64,000 nt of DNA from the IMG/VR virus record IMGVR_UViG_3300028854_000008, positions 63,374 through 127,373 of that record. One strand, 5' to 3'. The notes beneath the pieces were generated by a model that saw only the letters and a program-made list of their open reading frames with translations, had not been told where the DNA came from and did not search any database. A program made the translations under genes and the position numbers. The DNA comes from a virus (taxonomy: Duplodnaviria > Heunggongvirae > Uroviricota > Caudoviricetes). Below, one piece after another: positions 29,355 through 63,437 of this stretch (position 1 is the stretch's first letter; the number at the start of each line of letters is the position of its first letter).

Positions 29355-29975
29355 ATGAAGCAAGATTTTGAAAAGATCAGAATTGCGATACGACATTGGC
29401 AACTTGGTCGTAATTATTTTACTGCTGTTCGTGCAATGAATTTTGCTCAAAGCAAACATGTTGGATTGCGTAAAGATAAGATCACGCCAGAATTTCAACA
29501 TCAAGTATCTCAGACAAACTTTGCCAGAACTTTGATCAATTCATATATGTTTCCAGAAGAAACTCTAGCAACAATCTGGCTGCACGATGTAGTGGAAGAT
29601 TGCGGCGTTACTATTTCAGAAATAGAAAAAATGTTTGGGGCGCGTATTGCTTTCAGCGTTGAATTAATGACCAATCAAGTTTCTGGAGTAAAGAAACCAT
29701 TAGATAAATATTATTCTGCGATGATTGCTGATCCTATTGCAAGTTTAGCGAAGGGAATTGATCGTATGCACAATCACCAATCAATGAATGGAGTTTTCAG
29801 TATTACAAAACAAAAGTCATACATTGAAGAATCTGAAACTTACATTTTTCCTATGCTCAAAGCTGCTCGTAAGACTTTTCCAGAACAGGAAAGTGCATAT
29901 CAAAACATTCGTCATATCCTGCAAATTCAAATTGAACTTGTAAGAGCAATGATTGAAAACTCAGAAAGGGCATAA
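29355..29975 (+). CDS. small alarmone hydrolase, HD-domain (p)ppGpp hydrolase, SpoT/Mesh1-like
   Basis: HD motif WLHDVVEDCGVT..FG..IA..V..T as in RelA/SpoT hydrolase domain; ~200 aa. Confidence 0.7.
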   Translation: MKQDFEKIRIAIRHWQLGRNYFTAVRAMNFAQSKHVGLRKDKITPEFQHQVSQTNFARTLINSYMFPEETLATIWLHDVVEDCGVTISEIEKMFGARIAFSVELMTNQVSGVKKPLDKYYSAMIADPIASLAKGIDRMHNHQSMNGVFSITKQKSYIEESETYIFPMLKAARKTFPEQESAYQNIRHILQIQIELVRAMIENSERA

Positions 29976-30700: not shown

Positions 30701-31039
30701 TTGAAAATTAGAGATGGTTTTGTATCAAATTCAAGTTCAACAAGTTTTTCGATTTATGGTATTAACATCGACGGATCAAAATTGCGCAGTCTATTATGCG
30801 GTGGACCAGAAGAAGATTTTCCAGATGACGATGGAATTTATGAACTTCTTGAAAATTTAGAAGGATTAAATACCTATCATGATTATGAAAGCGGCGGCGC
30901 ATATATTGGTCTTCCTTGGGATTCAATTAAAGATAATGAAACTGGAAAAGAATTCAAAAATAGAGTTCATGATCTTATAAGAGAACAACTGCACGAAGAT
31001 TTGACTTGTAGCACAATCAGCGAAACAATTAGCTCATAA
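30701..31039 (+). CDS. small protein with conserved N-terminus KIRxGFVSNSSS(T/S)SF (paralog 1 of 3)
   Basis: TTG start after AAAGGAGAA SD; full-length homolog of 32160 ORF (YIGLPWDSIKDNETGKEFKNRVHDLI). Confidence 0.6.
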   Translation: MKIRDGFVSNSSSTSFSIYGINIDGSKLRSLLCGGPEEDFPDDDGIYELLENLEGLNTYHDYESGGAYIGLPWDSIKDNETGKEFKNRVHDLIREQLHEDLTCSTISETISS

Positions 31040-31049
31040 AGGAAGAATA

Positions 31050-32159
31050 ATGAATCGCATTAAAAAAATTTCGTTTCCCGATTACAATCGCATTTTTGAC
31101 CGCAAAACTGGTTTAACAATTGAATATGGAAAAACCATTGATGAAGACCCACCAATGTCTCCTGATGGCCCATCTATTGCTGATATTGAAATTTCTACTA
31201 TTTGTAATGGATTTTCTCCTGATGGTGATATTACAAAAAGCAAACCTTGTGCTTGGTGTTATAAAACAAACACAGCAAAAGGCACAAATATGTCATTGAA
31301 TGAATTCAAACATATTTTGAAATTACTTGGGAATGTAGACCAAGTAGCATTGGGGTTAGGTGATATTGAAAGTAACCCAGATATATGGAATATGTTATCC
31401 TATAGTCGTTCATTGGGAATAATTCCGAATTTGACAGTTAATGGTATGGGAATTACTCCAGAAATTGCAGATAAGTTAGCAAAGTTTTGTGGGGCTGTGG
31501 CGTGTTCTCATTATTCTGACAAAATTTGTTTTAATACTGTAAAAGCACTAACTGATGCTGGGTTAACTCAGGTGAATATTCACGCCCTTCTATCCAAAGA
31601 GACACTATCAAAATGTTTTGATTTGATTGATAAAGTATTCGAGTCAAAAAATGGTGGGGAAGATAAAAGTCTCTCTGGATTAAAAGCAATTGTTTTTCTA
31701 TTGCTCAAACCGAAAGGAGCTAGAAATAAATTTCATCCAGTGGAAAAATTAGAAGATTATAAAAAATTAATGGATTATGCCAGAGAGAAAAATGTTGCAA
31801 TTGGAATGGATTCATGCTCTGCTCCAATGGCGTTGAAAACATTGCCATCTGAGTGCATTCCCTCCATTATTTGTTGTGAGTCAACATACACTTCAATTTA
31901 TATTGACGTGAATTCTGAAGTATTTCCGTGTAGTTTTGCTGCTGGAACCCCAGGTTGGGAAACTGGTATCGATATGAAAAATATCAATAATTTTTTAAAT
32001 GATGTATGGTTTCATACCAAAATGATAAAATGGAGAGATGGATTAATAAAATCATCCAGTGATTGCTCAAATTGTTCAACTCAAAAACATTGCAGAAGTT
32101 GCCAGATTTATGATGTGACTATTTGCAAAACAAAATTAGTTAATTTGGAGGTATTATAA
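31050..32159 (+). CDS. radical SAM / SPASM-domain enzyme with noncanonical Cx14CxxC cluster motif
   Basis: IEISTICNGFSPDGDITKSKPCAWCY, GLGDIESNP (GGE-like), NLTVNGMG, C-terminal 7-Cys SPASM-like cluster CCES..PCSF..DCSNCS..HCRSCQ. Confidence 0.6.
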   Translation: MNRIKKISFPDYNRIFDRKTGLTIEYGKTIDEDPPMSPDGPSIADIEISTICNGFSPDGDITKSKPCAWCYKTNTAKGTNMSLNEFKHILKLLGNVDQVALGLGDIESNPDIWNMLSYSRSLGIIPNLTVNGMGITPEIADKLAKFCGAVACSHYSDKICFNTVKALTDAGLTQVNIHALLSKETLSKCFDLIDKVFESKNGGEDKSLSGLKAIVFLLLKPKGARNKFHPVEKLEDYKKLMDYAREKNVAIGMDSCSAPMALKTLPSECIPSIICCESTYTSIYIDVNSEVFPCSFAAGTPGWETGIDMKNINNFLNDVWFHTKMIKWRDGLIKSSSDCSNCSTQKHCRSCQIYDVTICKTKLVNLEVL

Positions 32160-32462
32160 ATGAAAATTCGGAGCAGCTTCGTAAGCAATTCAAGTTCATC
32201 GAGTTTTTTAATCTATGGAACTTTTATTGAAGATTATAAATTTGATGAGTTAAATGTAAAAGAGAGTGATCTGAAAAAATCCGGTCTTGAAGTAATTTCG
32301 ACTCCTGGGGACGATGATAAATATATTGGGCTATCGTGGGATGCCACAGAAGATAACGAAACGAGGTTGGAATTTAAAGATAGAGTTAAAAATCTTATTA
32401 TATCTTCTTTAGGAAAAGATATGCCATTGGCTACTTACAGCGAAGCGTGGTACGATGGTTAA
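32160..32462 (+). CDS. small protein with conserved N-terminus MKIRSSFVSNSSSSSF (paralog 2)
   Basis: ATG 1 nt after rSAM stop; homolog of 30701 ORF. Confidence 0.6.
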   Translation: MKIRSSFVSNSSSSSFLIYGTFIEDYKFDELNVKESDLKKSGLEVISTPGDDDKYIGLSWDATEDNETRLEFKDRVKNLIISSLGKDMPLATYSEAWYDG

Positions 32463-32473
32463 AGGAGATAATT

Positions 32474-32761
32474 ATGGCAAAAATACGCAAAGGCTTTGTA
32501 AGCAACAGTAGTTCAAGTTCATTCATTATAAAAACACAAAATTTAACTTGTGAGCAAGCAAATATGATTTTAAATCATATGGATTATGCAGAAGAACTGG
32601 GACTCAAAGATGAATATGTTAATGACTATGATGAATGGCACATCTCTTTTATAGGAGAGTCTATTACAGGATATACGTCTATGGATAATTTTAATATGCA
32701 CGAATTTTTAATTAAAATTGGAGTATCTCCAAACAATATTGAAATGGAGTATAATGGCTAA
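32474..32761 (+). CDS. small protein with conserved N-terminus MAKIRKGFVSNSSSSSF (paralog 3, divergent C-terminus)
   Basis: ATG after AAAGGAGATAATT SD; shares only N-terminal ~18 aa with paralogs. Confidence 0.55.
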   Translation: MAKIRKGFVSNSSSSSFIIKTQNLTCEQANMILNHMDYAEELGLKDEYVNDYDEWHISFIGESITGYTSMDNFNMHEFLIKIGVSPNNIEMEYNG

Positions 32762-33818
32762 AATTATTAATGATTTAAAACTTAACTTTGATGATGTATT
32801 AATTGTGCCGAAATCAAGTTCTTTAGATTCTAGAAAAGACGTAAATTTAAATGTAAATTTTAAATTTCCTCATTCCAAAGCAACTTGGAGTGGAATTCCC
32901 ATAATTGCTTCAAATATGACGACTGTTGCAAGTTTTGAAATGGCAAATGCTTTGGCAAAGCATAATATTATGACAGCAATTCACAAGTATTATTCTATTG
33001 AAGAGCTTAAAAACTTTTTTAATACTAAAATTGCTTGTGACTACGCTTGGTATACATTGGGAACCAGCAAAGATGAGTGGGAAAAACTTAAAAAAGTAAA
33101 TACAAATAAGCTAAGTATAGACAAAATTTGTATCGATGTTGCAAATGGATATCGAGATTCATTTGTTGATGCTGTTAAAAAACTTCGTGATGAATATCCA
33201 TTTGTAACTATTATGGCAGGAAATGTTGTTACTCCTGAGCAGACTGCTGTACTAATTAATGCAGGAGCAGACATTATTAAAGTAGGGATTGGCGGGGGAT
33301 CAGGCTGTCTTTCAAGAGTCAAAACAGGAATTGGTTACGGGCAAATTAGCGCAATTTTAGAATGTTCAGAAGCTGCGTATGAACTGGATGCATTTATTTG
33401 TAGTGATGGTGGATGCAGAAATCCCGGAGATGTTTGCAAAGCATTTGGGGCAATGTATGGTAAAAATTTTGTAATGCTTGGTTCAATGCTTGCTGGTCAT
33501 GATGAAACTCAAGCAAAAAAATTTATCAAAGATGGCAAGGAATTTGTAGAATTTTACGGTATGAGCAGCGAAAAAGCAATGAGAGAACACAATAATGGAA
33601 TGGCAGAATATCGAACAAGCGAAGGACGGCATATTTTACTTCCTGCTCGTGGCCCAGTAGAAAATACCATTTTGGACTGTCTCGGTGGAATTCGCAGTTG
33701 TTGCACGTATACAAACACAAAAAATTTGTCTCATCTATCTGAAAACACTACTTTTATACGAGTGAATGAGACTCACAATAAAATCTATGAAAAACTTGAC
33801 TTGAACAATCAAATATGA
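32754..33818 (+). CDS. guaC: GMP reductase
   Basis: Near-collinear with GuaC: DVLIVPKSS, IPIIASNMTTV, GNVVT, GIGGGSGCLSRVKTGIGYGQ, SDGGCRNPGDVCKAFG, GSMLAGHDE, GMSSEKAM, RGPVENT; no CBS insert. Confidence 0.85.
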   Translation: MAKIINDLKLNFDDVLIVPKSSSLDSRKDVNLNVNFKFPHSKATWSGIPIIASNMTTVASFEMANALAKHNIMTAIHKYYSIEELKNFFNTKIACDYAWYTLGTSKDEWEKLKKVNTNKLSIDKICIDVANGYRDSFVDAVKKLRDEYPFVTIMAGNVVTPEQTAVLINAGADIIKVGIGGGSGCLSRVKTGIGYGQISAILECSEAAYELDAFICSDGGCRNPGDVCKAFGAMYGKNFVMLGSMLAGHDETQAKKFIKDGKEFVEFYGMSSEKAMREHNNGMAEYRTSEGRHILLPARGPVENTILDCLGGIRSCCTYTNTKNLSHLSENTTFIRVNETHNKIYEKLDLNNQI

Positions 33819-35003: not shown

Positions 35004-35192
35004 ATGTTACTTTCAATTTTGAAACATTTACCAATATCTATTTTTATAAGTATATCACTATTATGCCAGAATACTTTGATTTTCAGTATATTGGTATTTT
35101 TATTAATTTGTTTATGTAGTATGTGGTTTTTCTTAGCGTATAAGTTTATTAAATTTCCTTTATTCAAAGCGACTATGTATGAAAAATACTAA
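35004..35192 (+). CDS. hypothetical small membrane peptide
   Basis: ORF track; very hydrophobic; weak. Confidence 0.3.
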   Translation: MLLSILKHLPISIFISISLLCQNTLIFSILVFLLICLCSMWFFLAYKFIKFPLFKATMYEKY

Positions 35193-36456
35193 TCTAGATA
35201 TTAAATGTATTTTCTGTGGCAAAACTAGGGCCGAAAGTTCCAAAATTCTCGTGAGTGGAGAATTTTCAATTTGTGATAAATGTGTGTTACTTTTCAATGG
35301 TCTTTTAGAAAATAGTAAACCTTCAGAAAAAAAAGCTAAAGAGAAAGAAATTAAGCAAGAATCTGAATTAATATCTGAGGAAATTATTCCTCAATTAAAT
35401 TCCATTGAAATTAAAAAATTTCTTGATAAGAATGTTATTGGGCAAGAAGAAGCAAAAATTGCATTGAGCGTTAGTATAGTAAATCACTATAAAAGAATGC
35501 TATATGAAACAACTAATTATACACAATTAGACAAAAGTAATTTAATTATCACTGGACCGAGCGGAAGTGGAAAATCTCTTCTCATTAAAACAATTTCTAA
35601 ATTTTTAAATGTTCCCTTCGTATCAATAGATGCTACTACATTGACCGAAGCTGGTTATATTGGAGAAAATGTAGACACTATCATTTCTCGGCTTCTTGCT
35701 AATGCAGATGGTGATATTGAAGCTGCTCAACAAGGAATTGTTTTTATTGATGAAATAGATAAAATTGCCACTGGAAAAACTAGAAGTAGCACAAGCGACA
35801 AACATGTATCTGGAGTTCAAGCTGCATTATTAAAAATGGTAGAAGGATCTATTGTAAGAATTCCATCGCCTTCAATTAAAAAATCATTTATTCCCCAATT
35901 AGTCGAAGTTGATACAACAAATATATTGTTCATTTGCGGCGGGGCATTTGAGGGATTAAATGAAATAGTTATTAATAGATTGAAAAAGAAATCAGGAATG
36001 GGGTTTACTGATGCTCCTATAAATAATAAAACTTTAGAAACAGAATATTCTACAGAAGATTTTATTGAATATGGAATAATTCCTGAATTTATTGGAAGAT
36101 TTCCATTACATACATATACTACTGCATTGAGTACTGAAGAATTAATTAAAGTTTTAACAGATTTAGACAATAATATGCTTTTTCAATATAAATTTTATTT
36201 TGAAATTGATGATATTGATATAGAATTTACTGATGAATTTATTGCCAAATTAGCCGCAAAAGCAAAAATGAATAAAACTGGAGTTCGTGGCCTTAAAGGA
36301 TTGTGTGATTCAATAATGTCAGATCATTTATTTTTACTTCCTGAATATAAAAAACGTGGAATTTTTAAATTAATATTTGACGAAAGTTGTATAGATAAAA
36401 AATCTATACCCAAATTTGAATTCACTACATTCAAAGAAAAAGTAAAAACTTCTTGA
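35179..36456 (+). CDS. clpX: ATP-dependent Clp protease ATPase subunit ClpX
   Basis: N-terminal C4 zinc finger CIFCGK..CDKCV, Walker A GPSGSGKSLL, DATTLTEAGYIGENVDTII, sensor and C-terminal domain blocks. Confidence 0.85.
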   Translation: MKNTNLDIKCIFCGKTRAESSKILVSGEFSICDKCVLLFNGLLENSKPSEKKAKEKEIKQESELISEEIIPQLNSIEIKKFLDKNVIGQEEAKIALSVSIVNHYKRMLYETTNYTQLDKSNLIITGPSGSGKSLLIKTISKFLNVPFVSIDATTLTEAGYIGENVDTIISRLLANADGDIEAAQQGIVFIDEIDKIATGKTRSSTSDKHVSGVQAALLKMVEGSIVRIPSPSIKKSFIPQLVEVDTTNILFICGGAFEGLNEIVINRLKKKSGMGFTDAPINNKTLETEYSTEDFIEYGIIPEFIGRFPLHTYTTALSTEELIKVLTDLDNNMLFQYKFYFEIDDIDIEFTDEFIAKLAAKAKMNKTGVRGLKGLCDSIMSDHLFLLPEYKKRGIFKLIFDESCIDKKSIPKFEFTTFKEKVKTS

Positions 36457-36516: not shown

Positions 36517-36819
36517 ATGACAGTAAATACTTTGAAAAAGGTAAAAATTAATATTGATGTAAAAGAACCAACTCTATATCAGGTAGTTTATTACAATGAC
36601 GAAATCACTCCTGCTGTTTTTGTTGCAGAAACATTAATCCAAATTTTCAATTATGAAATTGAAGATGCTGTTGCATTAACTACAGTTATTAATGATTCTG
36701 GGTCAGGTATTGCTGTGAGCGGAATATCAAAAGAATTAGCCACTCATCTGAAGGACCTAGTGTTGGTATCTGCGCAAGTTGCAAAATACCCACTCAAAGT
36801 AGAAGTAAAAGCGAAATAA
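36517..36819 (+). CDS. clpS: ClpS-like adaptor protein
   Basis: YQVVYYNDEITPAVFVAETLIQIFNYEIEDAVALTTVIN pattern typical of ClpS; immediately after clpX. Confidence 0.65.
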   Translation: MTVNTLKKVKINIDVKEPTLYQVVYYNDEITPAVFVAETLIQIFNYEIEDAVALTTVINDSGSGIAVSGISKELATHLKDLVLVSAQVAKYPLKVEVKAK

Positions 36820-37641: not shown

Positions 37642-38343
37642 ATGGATGAAAAAGCACAACTAGCTGCTGTTCAACAAAATGGTTATGCAATTCAATACAT
37701 CGACAAGCCAAGCGAAGCTGTGCAACTGGCTGCTGTTCAACAAAATGGTTGTGCAATTGAATACATCAGCAAGCCAAGCGAAGCTGTGCAACTGGCTGCT
37801 GTTCAACAAAATGGTTGTGCAATTGAATACATCAGCAAGCCAAGCAAAGCTGTGCAACTAGCTGCTGTTCAACAAGATGGTTGGGCAATTGAATACATCA
37901 GAAATCCAAGCGAAGCTGTGCAATTGGCTGCTGTTCAACAAGATGGTTGGGCAATTGAATACATCGACAATCCAAGCGAAGCTGTGCAAATGGCTGCTAT
38001 TCAACAAAATGGTTGGGCAATTGAATACATCGACAATCCAAGCGAAGCTGTGCAAATGGCTGCTATTCAACAAAATGGTCGTGCAATTGAATACATCAGC
38101 AAGCCAAGCGAAGCTGTGCAAATGGCTGCTGTTCAACAAGATGGTTGTGCAATTAAATACATCGACAAACCAAGCGAAGCTGTGCAAATGGCTGCTGTTC
38201 AACAAAATAGTGCGGTAATTCAATACATCGACAAGCCAAGCGAAGCTGTGCAACTGGCTGCTGTTCAAGAAAATAGTGCGGTAATTCAATTCATAAAAAA
38301 TCCAACAATTAATGTCAAATTAGTGGCTAAATTGCTATCTTAA
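37642..38343 (+). CDS. DUF4116-type tandem-repeat protein (~10 x 23-aa repeats)
   Basis: 69-bp DNA tandem repeats encoding AVQLAAVQQNG.AIEYI.KPSE; tail INVKLVAKLLS. Confidence 0.7.
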   Translation: MDEKAQLAAVQQNGYAIQYIDKPSEAVQLAAVQQNGCAIEYISKPSEAVQLAAVQQNGCAIEYISKPSKAVQLAAVQQDGWAIEYIRNPSEAVQLAAVQQDGWAIEYIDNPSEAVQMAAIQQNGWAIEYIDNPSEAVQMAAIQQNGRAIEYISKPSEAVQMAAVQQDGCAIKYIDKPSEAVQMAAVQQNSAVIQYIDKPSEAVQLAAVQENSAVIQFIKNPTINVKLVAKLLS

Positions 38344-56975: not shown

Positions 56976-57604
56976 GTAACTTTGATAAACTGAAGAAACA
57001 ATTAGATAAAGCAGAGGAAAATGCTTCTATTAAACGTGAAGAATTTTATGGTTTAATCACAGAAGTATTGTCTGTATTTAATTTGAATAATGATCATTAC
57101 GACGATGTATGGTCAAATGAAACTCATGTAATTGTGAACTATAGCTGGAGGGCTGCTGGATGTAACTGCTCAGATTCTATTACTCTCCCAAAGTCAATTT
57201 TTGATGCTGCTGATCCTGTTGCCGTCGCAAAAATTTATAAAAATGATCTTGATAATAGCAAGAAAAAGTCTGAACGTTCAATAAAATTAGAAGAATTTAA
57301 TGCTTTAAAGAAAGAACTTGGTGTAAAAATAATGAAAGCAACTCATCCAATACAACCATTAGTTAGCGACAAAGTTGGAACAACCAGATTTAAAGAAAAT
57401 GCTATTGTTAGCTATCTTATTGACATTGCAACACAAAAAGGCATAGCAGACATGAATTCTCTGGCTATTATGAATTTCTCAAATGAAGATCGTGAGCAAT
57501 TTGCTCAACTGATTGGATATTCATTGGACGGATTTGGTGAATTATCATATGTAAGTGATGAGACATATGATTTGGCTGCAAAGCAAAAAGTTTTTAAGGA
57601 ATAA
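56972..57604 (+). CDS. hypothetical protein
   Basis: ATGA overlap with upstream gene. Confidence 0.5.
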   Translation: MSNFDKLKKQLDKAEENASIKREEFYGLITEVLSVFNLNNDHYDDVWSNETHVIVNYSWRAAGCNCSDSITLPKSIFDAADPVAVAKIYKNDLDNSKKKSERSIKLEEFNALKKELGVKIMKATHPIQPLVSDKVGTTRFKENAIVSYLIDIATQKGIADMNSLAIMNFSNEDREQFAQLIGYSLDGFGELSYVSDETYDLAAKQKVFKE

Positions 57605-57639
57605 ATACAAGTGTTAAATAACGCTCGTGAAAGGACAGT

Positions 57640-57700
57640 ATAAAATCAACGGACAACACACCGGTTCAACTCCGGTCAGGTCCACCAAATTTATGATTCA
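57640..57700 (+). ncRNA. tRNA-like 3' half (T-arm ACCGG-TTCAACT-CCGGT + acceptor strand CAGGTCC + A + CCA); possible permuted tRNA/tmRNA-like piece
   Basis: Canonical T-arm and encoded CCA; complementary acceptor strand GGGCCTG lies 28 nt downstream, not upstream. Confidence 0.3.
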
Positions 57701-58035
57701 ATGTTTTATTTGGGCCTGTCATGGTATCGATTGACGTGTGGTTGGACTACTGACGAGCCGACTGGTGTGGCCATCGTAAATGGACACATAAACAATAATT
57801 GCTACCTCTGGTATCAATGGCAGTGCAAAGATTTTCACGTATTCTGTGAATCTCCGCAACACTGAGCTAGTAAACGCCTAATAAGCTTTACTCCGAGGAG
57901 TTGTTCCGTCCTTGTAAAAGAAACGGAACTATAAAATTTCCTTTAACAACTCAGTAGATCACTGCATATAGGACAATTTTATTTTGCATCTAGAAAATAA
58001 TGTAGATATTTCATTCTTATAGATAAGTTATCATC

Positions 58036-63361: not shown

Positions 63362-63437
63362 ATATTCAAAACAAAGCACTTATTTTCTTATTGACTTTAC
63401 TCTTAACCTTTGATACAATATATTTATTGGAGAGTAT
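63362..63437 (+). promoter_or_regulatory. conserved promoter element variant (as 38345) driving 63438 gene
   Basis: AAACAAAGCACTTATTTTCTTATTGACTTTACTCTTAACCTTTGATACAAT. Confidence 0.5.

Follow-up and report, generated by a model that had tools for sequence, protein, structure and literature searches.

A radical-SAM/SPASM enzyme that travels with arrays of N-terminally tagged proteins in phages points to an undescribed protein-modification system

Introduction

Apart from the case considered here, radical S-adenosylmethionine (SAM) maturases with a SPASM domain are known almost solely from peptide natural products of bacteria, besides a few cofactors. Among them, FxsB, XyeB and GrrB have been reported to form cyclophanes on precursor peptides (PMC10114670). 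The FxSxx peptides are paired with a radical-SAM/SPASM enzyme, belong to rapidly diverging small proteins that keep a short motif, and are linked to von Willebrand A (vWA) proteins (PMC7159879). Here we analyze a stretch of 64,000 nucleotides (the window) from a tailed phage of the class Caudoviricetes (IMG/VR record IMGVR_UViG_3300028854_000008, positions 63,374 to 127,373), in which the gene for a radical-SAM/SPASM enzyme is flanked by genes for three small proteins, A, B and C, that begin with nearly the same serine-rich peptide, hereafter the tag; what follows the tag is called the body.

A short N-terminus shared by diverse small proteins that are encoded in tandem arrays is familiar from the internal proteins IPI, IPII and IPIII of phage T4. 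For the locus described here we propose a two-component phage module, in which a dedicated radical-SAM/SPASM enzyme would modify the tag of client proteins that have this one N-terminal peptide in common on otherwise unrelated bodies, and we give this reading a probability of roughly 0.6. The enzyme travels with tag arrays in hundreds of phage genomes, which points to a protein-modification system that has not been described. A first inspection of the letters, made without database searches (the sequence-only reading), had not recognized the combination as a known system, and this impression has held: our literature search found no paper with the tag motif or with the enzyme-tag pairing, Pfam and NCBIfam contain no model for the tagged proteins, and PHROGs contains phrog_7397 only, an entry of 'unknown function'.

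Results

The tag is conserved as a peptide at the extreme N-terminus

The tags of the window read MKIRDGFVSNSSSTSF in A (residues 1-16), MKIRSSFVSNSSSSSF in B and (M)AKIRKGFVSNSSSSSF in C. The near-identical Ser-rich starts that the sequence-only reading had seen in three open reading frames (ORFs), at 30701, 32160 and 32474, are indeed far from accidental, as a degenerate DNA pattern for KIRxxFVSNSSSSSF has exactly three matches in the window (30704, 32163 and 32480, all on the + strand) against an expectation of 0.00 from 100 shuffles. This excess, together with the fact that 1.05 Mb of related loci yielded 0 matches on the opposite strand, rules out an artefact of chance or low complexity.

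Over all loci the tag has the logo M-K-[IV]-R-x-G-F-V-S-N-S-S-S-[ST]-S-F-[IVLC]-[IVLC], with the last two positions hydrophobic. The motif begins at residue 1 in 244 of 257 tagged ORFs and at residue 2 in another 12. Phe occupies position 7 in 213 of 216 tags, position 8 is Val or Ile in all 216, and F16 is followed by the two hydrophobic residues; the search pattern itself dictated position 9 in this set of 216, and Ser9 is invariant also in an alignment (A2) derived by hidden Markov model (HMM) search. Besides its serine run, the tag contains two invariant aromatics, an invariant Arg and near-invariant Lys and Gly; it contains no cysteine, and thioethers are thus excluded. At loci that appeared at first to be without a tag, variant forms were found adjoining the enzyme (MKVRAGFVSNSSVSSF, MKRRIGFVSNSSTYSY, MKIRLGFVSNSSTVNF and MRIRLGFVSNSSTASF), and the core of the tag is therefore given as [KR]-x-[RK]-x-G-F-V-S-N-S-S.

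All six Ser codons (AGY and TCN) are used at each Ser position of the tag, and the three copies in the window differ at many synonymous sites. As the Ser codons vary freely, it is the peptide that is under selection, not the DNA or RNA, and conservation at the nucleic-acid level, be it of a recombination site or of a translation element, is ruled out by the codon use and the synonymous differences. In the structural model of protein A, low confidence is confined to residues 1-10, the most conserved ones, as one would expect of a partner-binding arm, while SSSF and the hydrophobic pair are predicted to start the first beta strand of the body.

The tag heads many unrelated bodies

Past the tag, A and B are 52% identical over their C-terminal 42 residues (E 5e-13), in agreement with the earlier description of two of the small proteins as full-length homologs. 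C has only the tag in common with them, its body being of a different family. The body of A belongs to the largest body family, in which YIGxSWDxVxDDETGKEFK ... EAWYDG is conserved. When all loci were pooled, we obtained 456 unique tagged proteins of 74-423 aa, and 441 bodies stripped of the tag fell into 120 BLAST clusters (85 singletons). Profile-profile comparison (hhalign) of the 14 largest clusters gave a highest probability of 48%, with most values below 5%. By these comparisons, the tag heads at least 120 body families without detectable mutual similarity.

Annotation of 48 + 10 + 8 body representatives with Pfam, PADLOC and PHROG models yielded essentially nothing, and none of the 48 had a Pfam match. 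The few bodies that could be annotated comprise one leucine-rich repeat (LRR) domain, one STAS-like DUF4325 and phrog_7397 (unknown function), and there was one weak match to phrog_132, 'head-tail adaptor'. A tagged LRR protein of 423 aa is found on a contig from a metagenome-assembled genome (MAG; L213). No known structural relative was found for the fold of protein A. Several of the body families end alike at the C-terminus, in W[YF]DG, GRNG or GGY. The tagged proteins are also numerous: a profile built from the small proteins pulls out thousands of metagenomic proteins without a Pfam domain, and an exhaustive HMMER search returned 9,612 representatives at 50% identity with E <= 1e-3, 2,515 of them with E <= 1e-10.

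The enzyme has a predicted radical-SAM/SPASM fold

The enzyme carries the triad C52-x14-C67-x2-C70 and eight conserved C-terminal Cys (256, 276, 294, 339, 342, 348, 351 and 359). The sequence-only reading had the triad right (Cx14CxxC) and counted seven Cys in the C-terminal cluster instead of eight. Four of these form a CX2CX5CX2C block (C339-x2-C342-x5-C348-x2-C351), to be compared with the SPASM criterion of a 7-Cys motif with a CX2CX5CX3C block. The three Cys of the triad are kept without exception in 43 of 43 and in 5 of 5 aligned homologues. The first spacing of the triad among the 43 is CX3 in 8, CX6-8 in 9, CX12 in 23 and CX14 in 2, the window enzyme included. Because the spacing in the family runs from the canonical CX3 through CX12 to CX14, the long spacing is, as the alignment has it, a lineage-specific loop insertion and not a different kind of site; 'noncanonical', as the enzyme had been called, was an overstatement for a family with canonical CX3CX2C members (8/43). 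The members from one metagenomic contig (L004), from Vibrio and from T4-like phages keep only part of the C-terminal Cys, with 256, 276, 294 and 342 invariant in all five, and by their sequence may be twitch-like.

The structural model of the enzyme (pLDDT 92.3) has the partial TIM-barrel fold of radical-SAM enzymes. Its nearest structures are SuiB (top), SkfB, anSME, CteB, ChlB, TigE and PqqE, nearly all of which are SPASM/twitch enzymes known to act on peptides or proteins, and at the level of the predicted structure the match is unambiguous. A short three-stranded beta sheet at the N-terminus (residues 4-26) is predicted and conserved, and Pfam finds no match to PqqD, the recognition element (RRE) of peptides that are made on the ribosome and modified after translation (RiPPs).

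At the sequence level the enzyme is remote from described families. We retrieved 177 homologues, many of which (45-58% identity) have precomputed PF04055 matches, and PF13186 matches also occur among them. The enzyme matches strongly to phrog_7293, a PHROGs entry of 'unknown function'. A scan of NCBIfam at E <= 0.1 returned only MftC, NirJ2, the SPASM domain, AhbD and PqqE, all far under their cut-offs, and neither a single-sequence nor a profile search (profile E 0.01) found a relative in the PDB.

The enzyme gene is recurrently invaded or flanked by selfish elements, which is the usual pattern for conserved, important genes. Hint/intein domains are present within one homologue (P0191); the gene is in two pieces in Cronobacter phage leB (H4) and is likewise split in Kpn35c1 (PMC9960720); and homing-endonuclease genes abut it in Vibrio phage D479 (L001 6058-6786) and in another locus (L228, 11387-12313). 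On one contig (L231), another radical-SAM gene, which encodes a shorter protein (317 aa), lies some 8 kb upstream of the first.

Enzyme and tag occur together across phages

A search of IMG/VR with the enzyme alone gave 80 loci on viral contigs, or 68 lineages after collapse at 90% identity. At least one tagged ORF was found within 8 kb of the enzyme in 61 of the 68 lineages, and within 1.5 kb in 47. The search for the motif next to radical-SAM genes of other phages, which the sequence-only reading had suggested, was thus rewarded. The loci have between 1 and 11 tagged ORFs each, 233 in total (203 downstream and 30 upstream of the enzyme), and all 233 are on the strand of the enzyme, with none on the opposite strand in the 1.05 Mb of these enzyme-selected loci. 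No other gene family comes near the frequency of the tag genes beside the enzyme. In the reverse direction, starting from tagged proteins, the enzyme was found within 10 kb on 5 of 7 long contigs, one of which has 12 tagged genes, and it is present in 37 of 104 tag-bearing stretches of about 8 kb. On a 42-kb contig (L231, 9005-14630), twelve tagged genes are found in less than 6 kb around the radical-SAM gene.

The pairing also holds in cultured phages. Among 50,697 records, the enzyme is present in 172, almost all of them from T4-like phages of the RB16/RB43/Slopekvirus group, along with Vibrio phage D479. Two tagged proteins of the RB16 type, searched by their bodies without the tag, are present in 174 and 175 records. 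The counts for the enzyme and the two tagged proteins follow each other through the host genera: 110, 114 and 115 for Klebsiella, 20 each for Enterobacter, 14 each for Cronobacter, 11 each for Citrobacter and 9 each for Escherichia. Culturable carriers include RB16, RB43 and the KP15/KP27/Miro/Matisse group of Klebsiella phages. Near-identical DNA was not found in cultured phages, and tblastn of protein A against them returned nothing; the search missed the tag-only relative in Vibrio phage D479, probably through low-complexity masking.

In 185,579 species genomes, the enzyme family was found 19 times, always on MAG contigs and never in an isolate, and a cellular origin is ruled out on these grounds. 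Many of the MAG matches (L208-L226) are labelled as archaea (Promethearchaeota, Heimdallarchaeota, Bathyarchaeia, Thermoplasmata and Woesearchaeota), one is on a contig of 793 kb (L211), and several of the loci have variant tags; these could be archaeal viruses or mis-binned phage contigs.

Gene order in the window

The module is located in an AT-rich region (~33% GC) of a large phage with a one-strand gene layout, where the + strand carries, in this order, an HD-domain protein, small ORFs, A, the radical-SAM enzyme, B, C, GuaC, a WGR protein, a PP2C phosphatase, and putative ClpX and ClpS-like proteins (Table 1). The start codon of B begins at the first base past the stop codon of the enzyme. 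C and GuaC overlap by 8 nt (ATGGCTAA), and GuaC is translationally coupled to C via this overlap, where the sequence-only reading had put an ATG overlap. The JGI gene calls for other, independent contigs of this phage agree with these five genes (112, 369, 100, 95 and 354 aa from A to GuaC). Since promoter-like and terminator-like sites within the block show no excess over chance, the block reads as one transcription unit.

Table 1. Positions of the module and adjoining features in the window.
Feature	Length	Position	Strand	Start
HD-domain protein		29355-29975	+	
Tagged protein A	112 aa	30701..31039	+	TTG, 7 nt past AAGGAG
Tag-coding segment of A	17 codons	30701..30751	+	
Radical-SAM/SPASM enzyme	369 aa	31050..32159	+	
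Tagged protein B, paralogue of A	100 aa	32160..32462	+	ATG start, Shine-Dalgarno sequence
Tagged protein C	95 aa	32474..32761	+	ATG start, Shine-Dalgarno sequence
GMP reductase (GuaC)	354 aa	32754..33818	+	ATG at 32754

An A3 run in gene C (window 32604-32607) is A4 in 2 of 4 environmental contigs of the same phage (L234 and L235). The A4 variant shifts the frame of tagged protein C past residue 44, and population variation and assembly error are both possible.

Neighboring genes

GuaC is a true GMP reductase by its score, at 454.3 bits against the equivalog cut-off of 397 for NF003470. Of 7 distinct lineages with a GuaC/IMPDH-like gene, 5, among them that of the window, have it within about 1 kb of tag genes; the gene is found in a minority of all lineages, recurs as an optional neighbor and is not a core part of the module. 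The WGR and PP2C genes, which the sequence-only reading had counted into the combination, have no counterpart in the 118 tag-selected loci tested and are ruled out as members. Lastly, DUF4419, tried as a substitute enzyme next to tag arrays without a radical-SAM gene, is not recurrent and was dismissed.

In RB16 and Slopekvirus, the two tagged genes flank a 739-aa vWA protein and two small conserved genes (L162 2410-6800), and a vWA protein with 27% identity is encoded about 3 kb from tag genes on one unrelated contig of 307 kb. The vWA protein is ruled out as a third component, being confined to the RB16 clade and this one other lineage. NAD-salvage genes (NAPRTase, NAD synthase and nicotinamidase-like) are frequent beside the module in metagenomic jumbo-phage contigs (L004 1625-3647, L129 and L158); NAPRTase and NAD synthase are annotated by Pfam, while the genes in L129 and L158 (NadE-like and nicotinamidase-like) were recognized by eye in the translations. 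No protease family recurs in the neighborhoods.

Farther from the module, the window has 23 tRNA genes on the + strand (1055-21846 and 57591-57972) that cover most amino acids and include three tRNA-Ser, and ARAGORN also calls a permuted tmRNA-like gene with the tag peptide ATSGINGSAKIFTYSVNLRNTELVNA; a translation-related gene set this large is typical for huge phages. Translations read by eye gave a ClpX-like ATPase (35179-36456) with a zinc-ribbon N-terminus and the Walker A motif GPSGSGKS, and downstream of it a ClpS-like adaptor of 100 aa (36517-36819). A 233-aa protein (37642-38343) is made of about 9 tandem repeats of about 23 residues each (AVQLAAVQQNGxAIEYIxxPSE), which generate long antisense ORFs.

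Discussion

The sequences, the genomic coupling and the fold class of the enzyme together suggest that the enzyme probably acts on the tag. In the reaction that we envisage, the flexible N-terminal arm of a client (about residues 1-12) would enter the barrel of the enzyme, where the [4Fe-4S]/SAM site would produce a 5'-deoxyadenosyl radical that abstracts H from a residue of the tag; the SPASM auxiliary clusters would accept the electron, and a covalent modification would remain in the tag. The leading candidate is a C-C macrocycle on an aromatic, such as a three-residue cyclophane of Phe7-Val8-Ser9, after the example of FxsB on FxSxx peptides; the Aromatic-X-X motif of cyclophane substrates is present in the tag as F7-V8-S9. 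Another candidate crosslink would be a Lys/Arg-to-Phe link, similar to that made by SuiB, while oxidation of Ser to formylglycine, as by anSME, or epimerization appear less likely. The chemistry cannot be read from sequence, and the cyclophane is no more than an analogy from which a testable prediction follows. A synthetic tag peptide would be, for example, MKIRNGFVSNSSSSSFIIGK, and direct testing is feasible because the module is present in culturable phages.

Several of our findings weigh against the proposal that the enzyme modifies the tag. The window enzyme itself stays below the thresholds of the profiles by which the sequence-only reading had hoped to see it identified, with 22.5 bits against a gathering threshold of 29.5 for PF04055, 18.0 against 21.5 for PF13186 and 23.1 against 27 for TIGR04085; what speaks for radical-SAM/SPASM are the hits of its homologues and the structural match. 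The FxsB, XyeB and GrrM models of NCBIfam do not match it at E <= 0.1, and the proposed cyclophane chemistry would rest on the resemblance of five residues (F-V-S-N-S). About 10% of the enzyme lineages have no tag within 8 kb, and conversely the enzyme is missing from the 6-10 kb around two tag arrays (L006 and L230). In E. coli phage RB16 and some 170 relatives (the RB16 clade), the enzyme is not adjacent to the tagged genes, being about 20 kb from both. The tagged proteins, at about 9,600 clusters, far outnumber the 177 retrieved homologues of the enzyme, a comparison of searches that differ in sensitivity. Lastly, the tag is not entirely free, as its second half is predicted to be part of the first strand of the modelled protein A.

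An alternative is that the tag is a trafficking or fate signal that works independently of the enzyme, for capsid targeting, ejection, degradation or stability, with the enzyme acting on a nucleotide, a cofactor, DNA or something else. The architecture matches that of the T4 internal proteins, many of the carriers are T4-like, and at one locus (L229) the module adjoins Portal_T4, Gp23 and the prohead protease. The distance between enzyme and tagged genes in the RB16 clade fits such a signal as well, as do the recurrence of a GuaC/IMPDH-like gene within tag arrays and the ClpX and ClpS-like genes nearby in the window. However, tags are found within 8 kb in 90% of enzyme lineages and within 1.5 kb in 69%, far more often than would follow from a common location in an early region; cultured phages show a near-perfect phyletic match; and the nearest structural relatives of the enzyme modify peptides or proteins. 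Furthermore, the tag lacks a T4-like Glu cleavage motif, and ClpX/ClpS-like genes are absent from the annotated RB16 and Klebsiella regions that we viewed, other loci not having been searched for ClpX. An enzyme-independent signal consequently appears unlikely to us.

We rate somewhat lower the possibility that the tag is a docking motif and the tagged proteins are interchangeable adaptors, comparable to F-box proteins, that bring host targets to the enzyme. One invariant short motif on many unrelated bodies would suit this arrangement, as would the protein-interaction modules among the recognizable bodies (LRR and STAS-like) and the ratio of one enzyme to as many as 12 tagged proteins in a genome. 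A peptide of some 12 residues that is invariant and disordered nevertheless suits a substrate better, and in the known SPASM/twitch peptide modifiers it is the substrate peptide itself that is threaded into the barrel; none of them is known to rely on adaptors.

The least probable of the alternatives is that the small proteins form one very divergent superfamily, in which the tag is an active-site or ligand motif (a beta strand with a Ser-rich phosphate-binding loop) and the enzyme an unrelated neighbor or a supplier of the ligand: the SSSF-hydrophobic part does form the first strand in the model of protein A, the C-terminal endings (W[YF]DG, GRNG or GGY) are common to several families, and Ser-rich loops following a first strand are a common nucleotide-binding element, but hhalign finds no similarity among the 14 largest body families, the proteins vary in length between 74 and 423 aa with an LRR protein among them, the model leaves residues 1-10 outside the fold, searches for a structural relative gave none, and the strict position at residue 1 and the coupling to the enzyme would be left unexplained.

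If the tag is indeed modified by the enzyme, the modification would give fast-evolving phage proteins one common property, which could be stability, a docking handle or localization. The tagged proteins are probably effectors of host takeover or counter-defence, a role suggested by the large sets of small proteins with fast turnover, in early-type regions and beside genes of NAD salvage and nucleotide metabolism. A broader version, in which a portable 17-residue N-terminal tag, radical-cyclized or otherwise covalently altered by one radical-SAM/SPASM enzyme, is the shared handle for more than 100 unrelated, fast-evolving effector families in a general protein-tagging system of phages, we put forward tentatively and with more doubt than conviction. 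Modification of the tag by the enzyme would be a new kind of viral post-translational modification, a 'barcode' without a described counterpart, with possibly a new crosslink chemistry on whole proteins instead of peptides. It would give a first functional clue for thousands of phage proteins of unknown function, and possibly a short, genetically encodable pair of tag and enzyme for protein engineering.

Comparison with known systems

Of the described systems, the FxSxx peptides resemble the phage module in combining a radical-SAM/SPASM enzyme with diverging small proteins, and the tag has F7-V8-S9-N10-S11 where the FxSxx motif would be read; a vWA protein also stands between the two tagged genes of the RB16 clade, a link limited to two lineages. 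The FxSxx motif, however, stands at the very C-terminus, from which a metallopeptidase releases it, whereas the phage tag is N-terminal and comes with no conserved protease, and the FxsB system is actinobacterial and cellular, whereas the present one is phage-borne. SuiB/StrB, which makes the Lys-Trp crosslink of streptide, shares just 18% sequence identity with the phage enzyme and has a full RRE domain where the phage enzyme has only the three-stranded sheet; the streptide precursors are short peptides whose leader is cut off, in contrast to the whole proteins with a conserved extreme N-terminus that would be the clients here.

Two other classes of radical-SAM targets do not fit the tag. The motif of anSME/AtsB-type targets, (C/S)-x-(P/A)-x-R, is not found in it, with no Pro/Ala-x-Arg after any Ser in the logo; moreover, anSME serves one client family, the sulfatases, as opposed to the at least 120 unrelated families that carry the tag, and the enzyme here is phage-encoded. 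A glycyl-radical protein with an activase of the PflA type was rejected on its defining features, an R-V-x-G-[FYW] loop and an invariant Gly.

The T4 internal proteins are similar in their short common N-terminal peptide, in being small and fast-evolving, in their tandem genes and in their occurrence in T4-like phages. The sequences of the two N-termini are unrelated, though, and the T4 system has no dedicated modifying enzyme; in T4 the prohead protease cuts the signal off behind a Glu ([LIV]-x-E), and no conserved Glu follows the tag described here. Our literature search found no virion proteome for the KP15 group.

Classical RiPP systems, finally, are similar in that candidate substrate genes adjoin the maturase on the same strand (47/68 within 1.5 kb and 61/68 within 8 kb). 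The sequence-only reading had taken the locus for a RiPP-like system, and this is half right: there is a putative maturase together with a conserved N-terminal region common to its candidate substrates, but the leader and released small core of a RiPP have no equivalent, nor is there a conserved protease, and what is conserved here are residues 1-18 of proteins of 74-423 aa with bodies predicted to be folded. Compared with the known radical-SAM/SPASM maturases that have linked substrates, the module is thus unusual in its phage origin, in its whole-protein clients and in its single, portable N-terminal tag.

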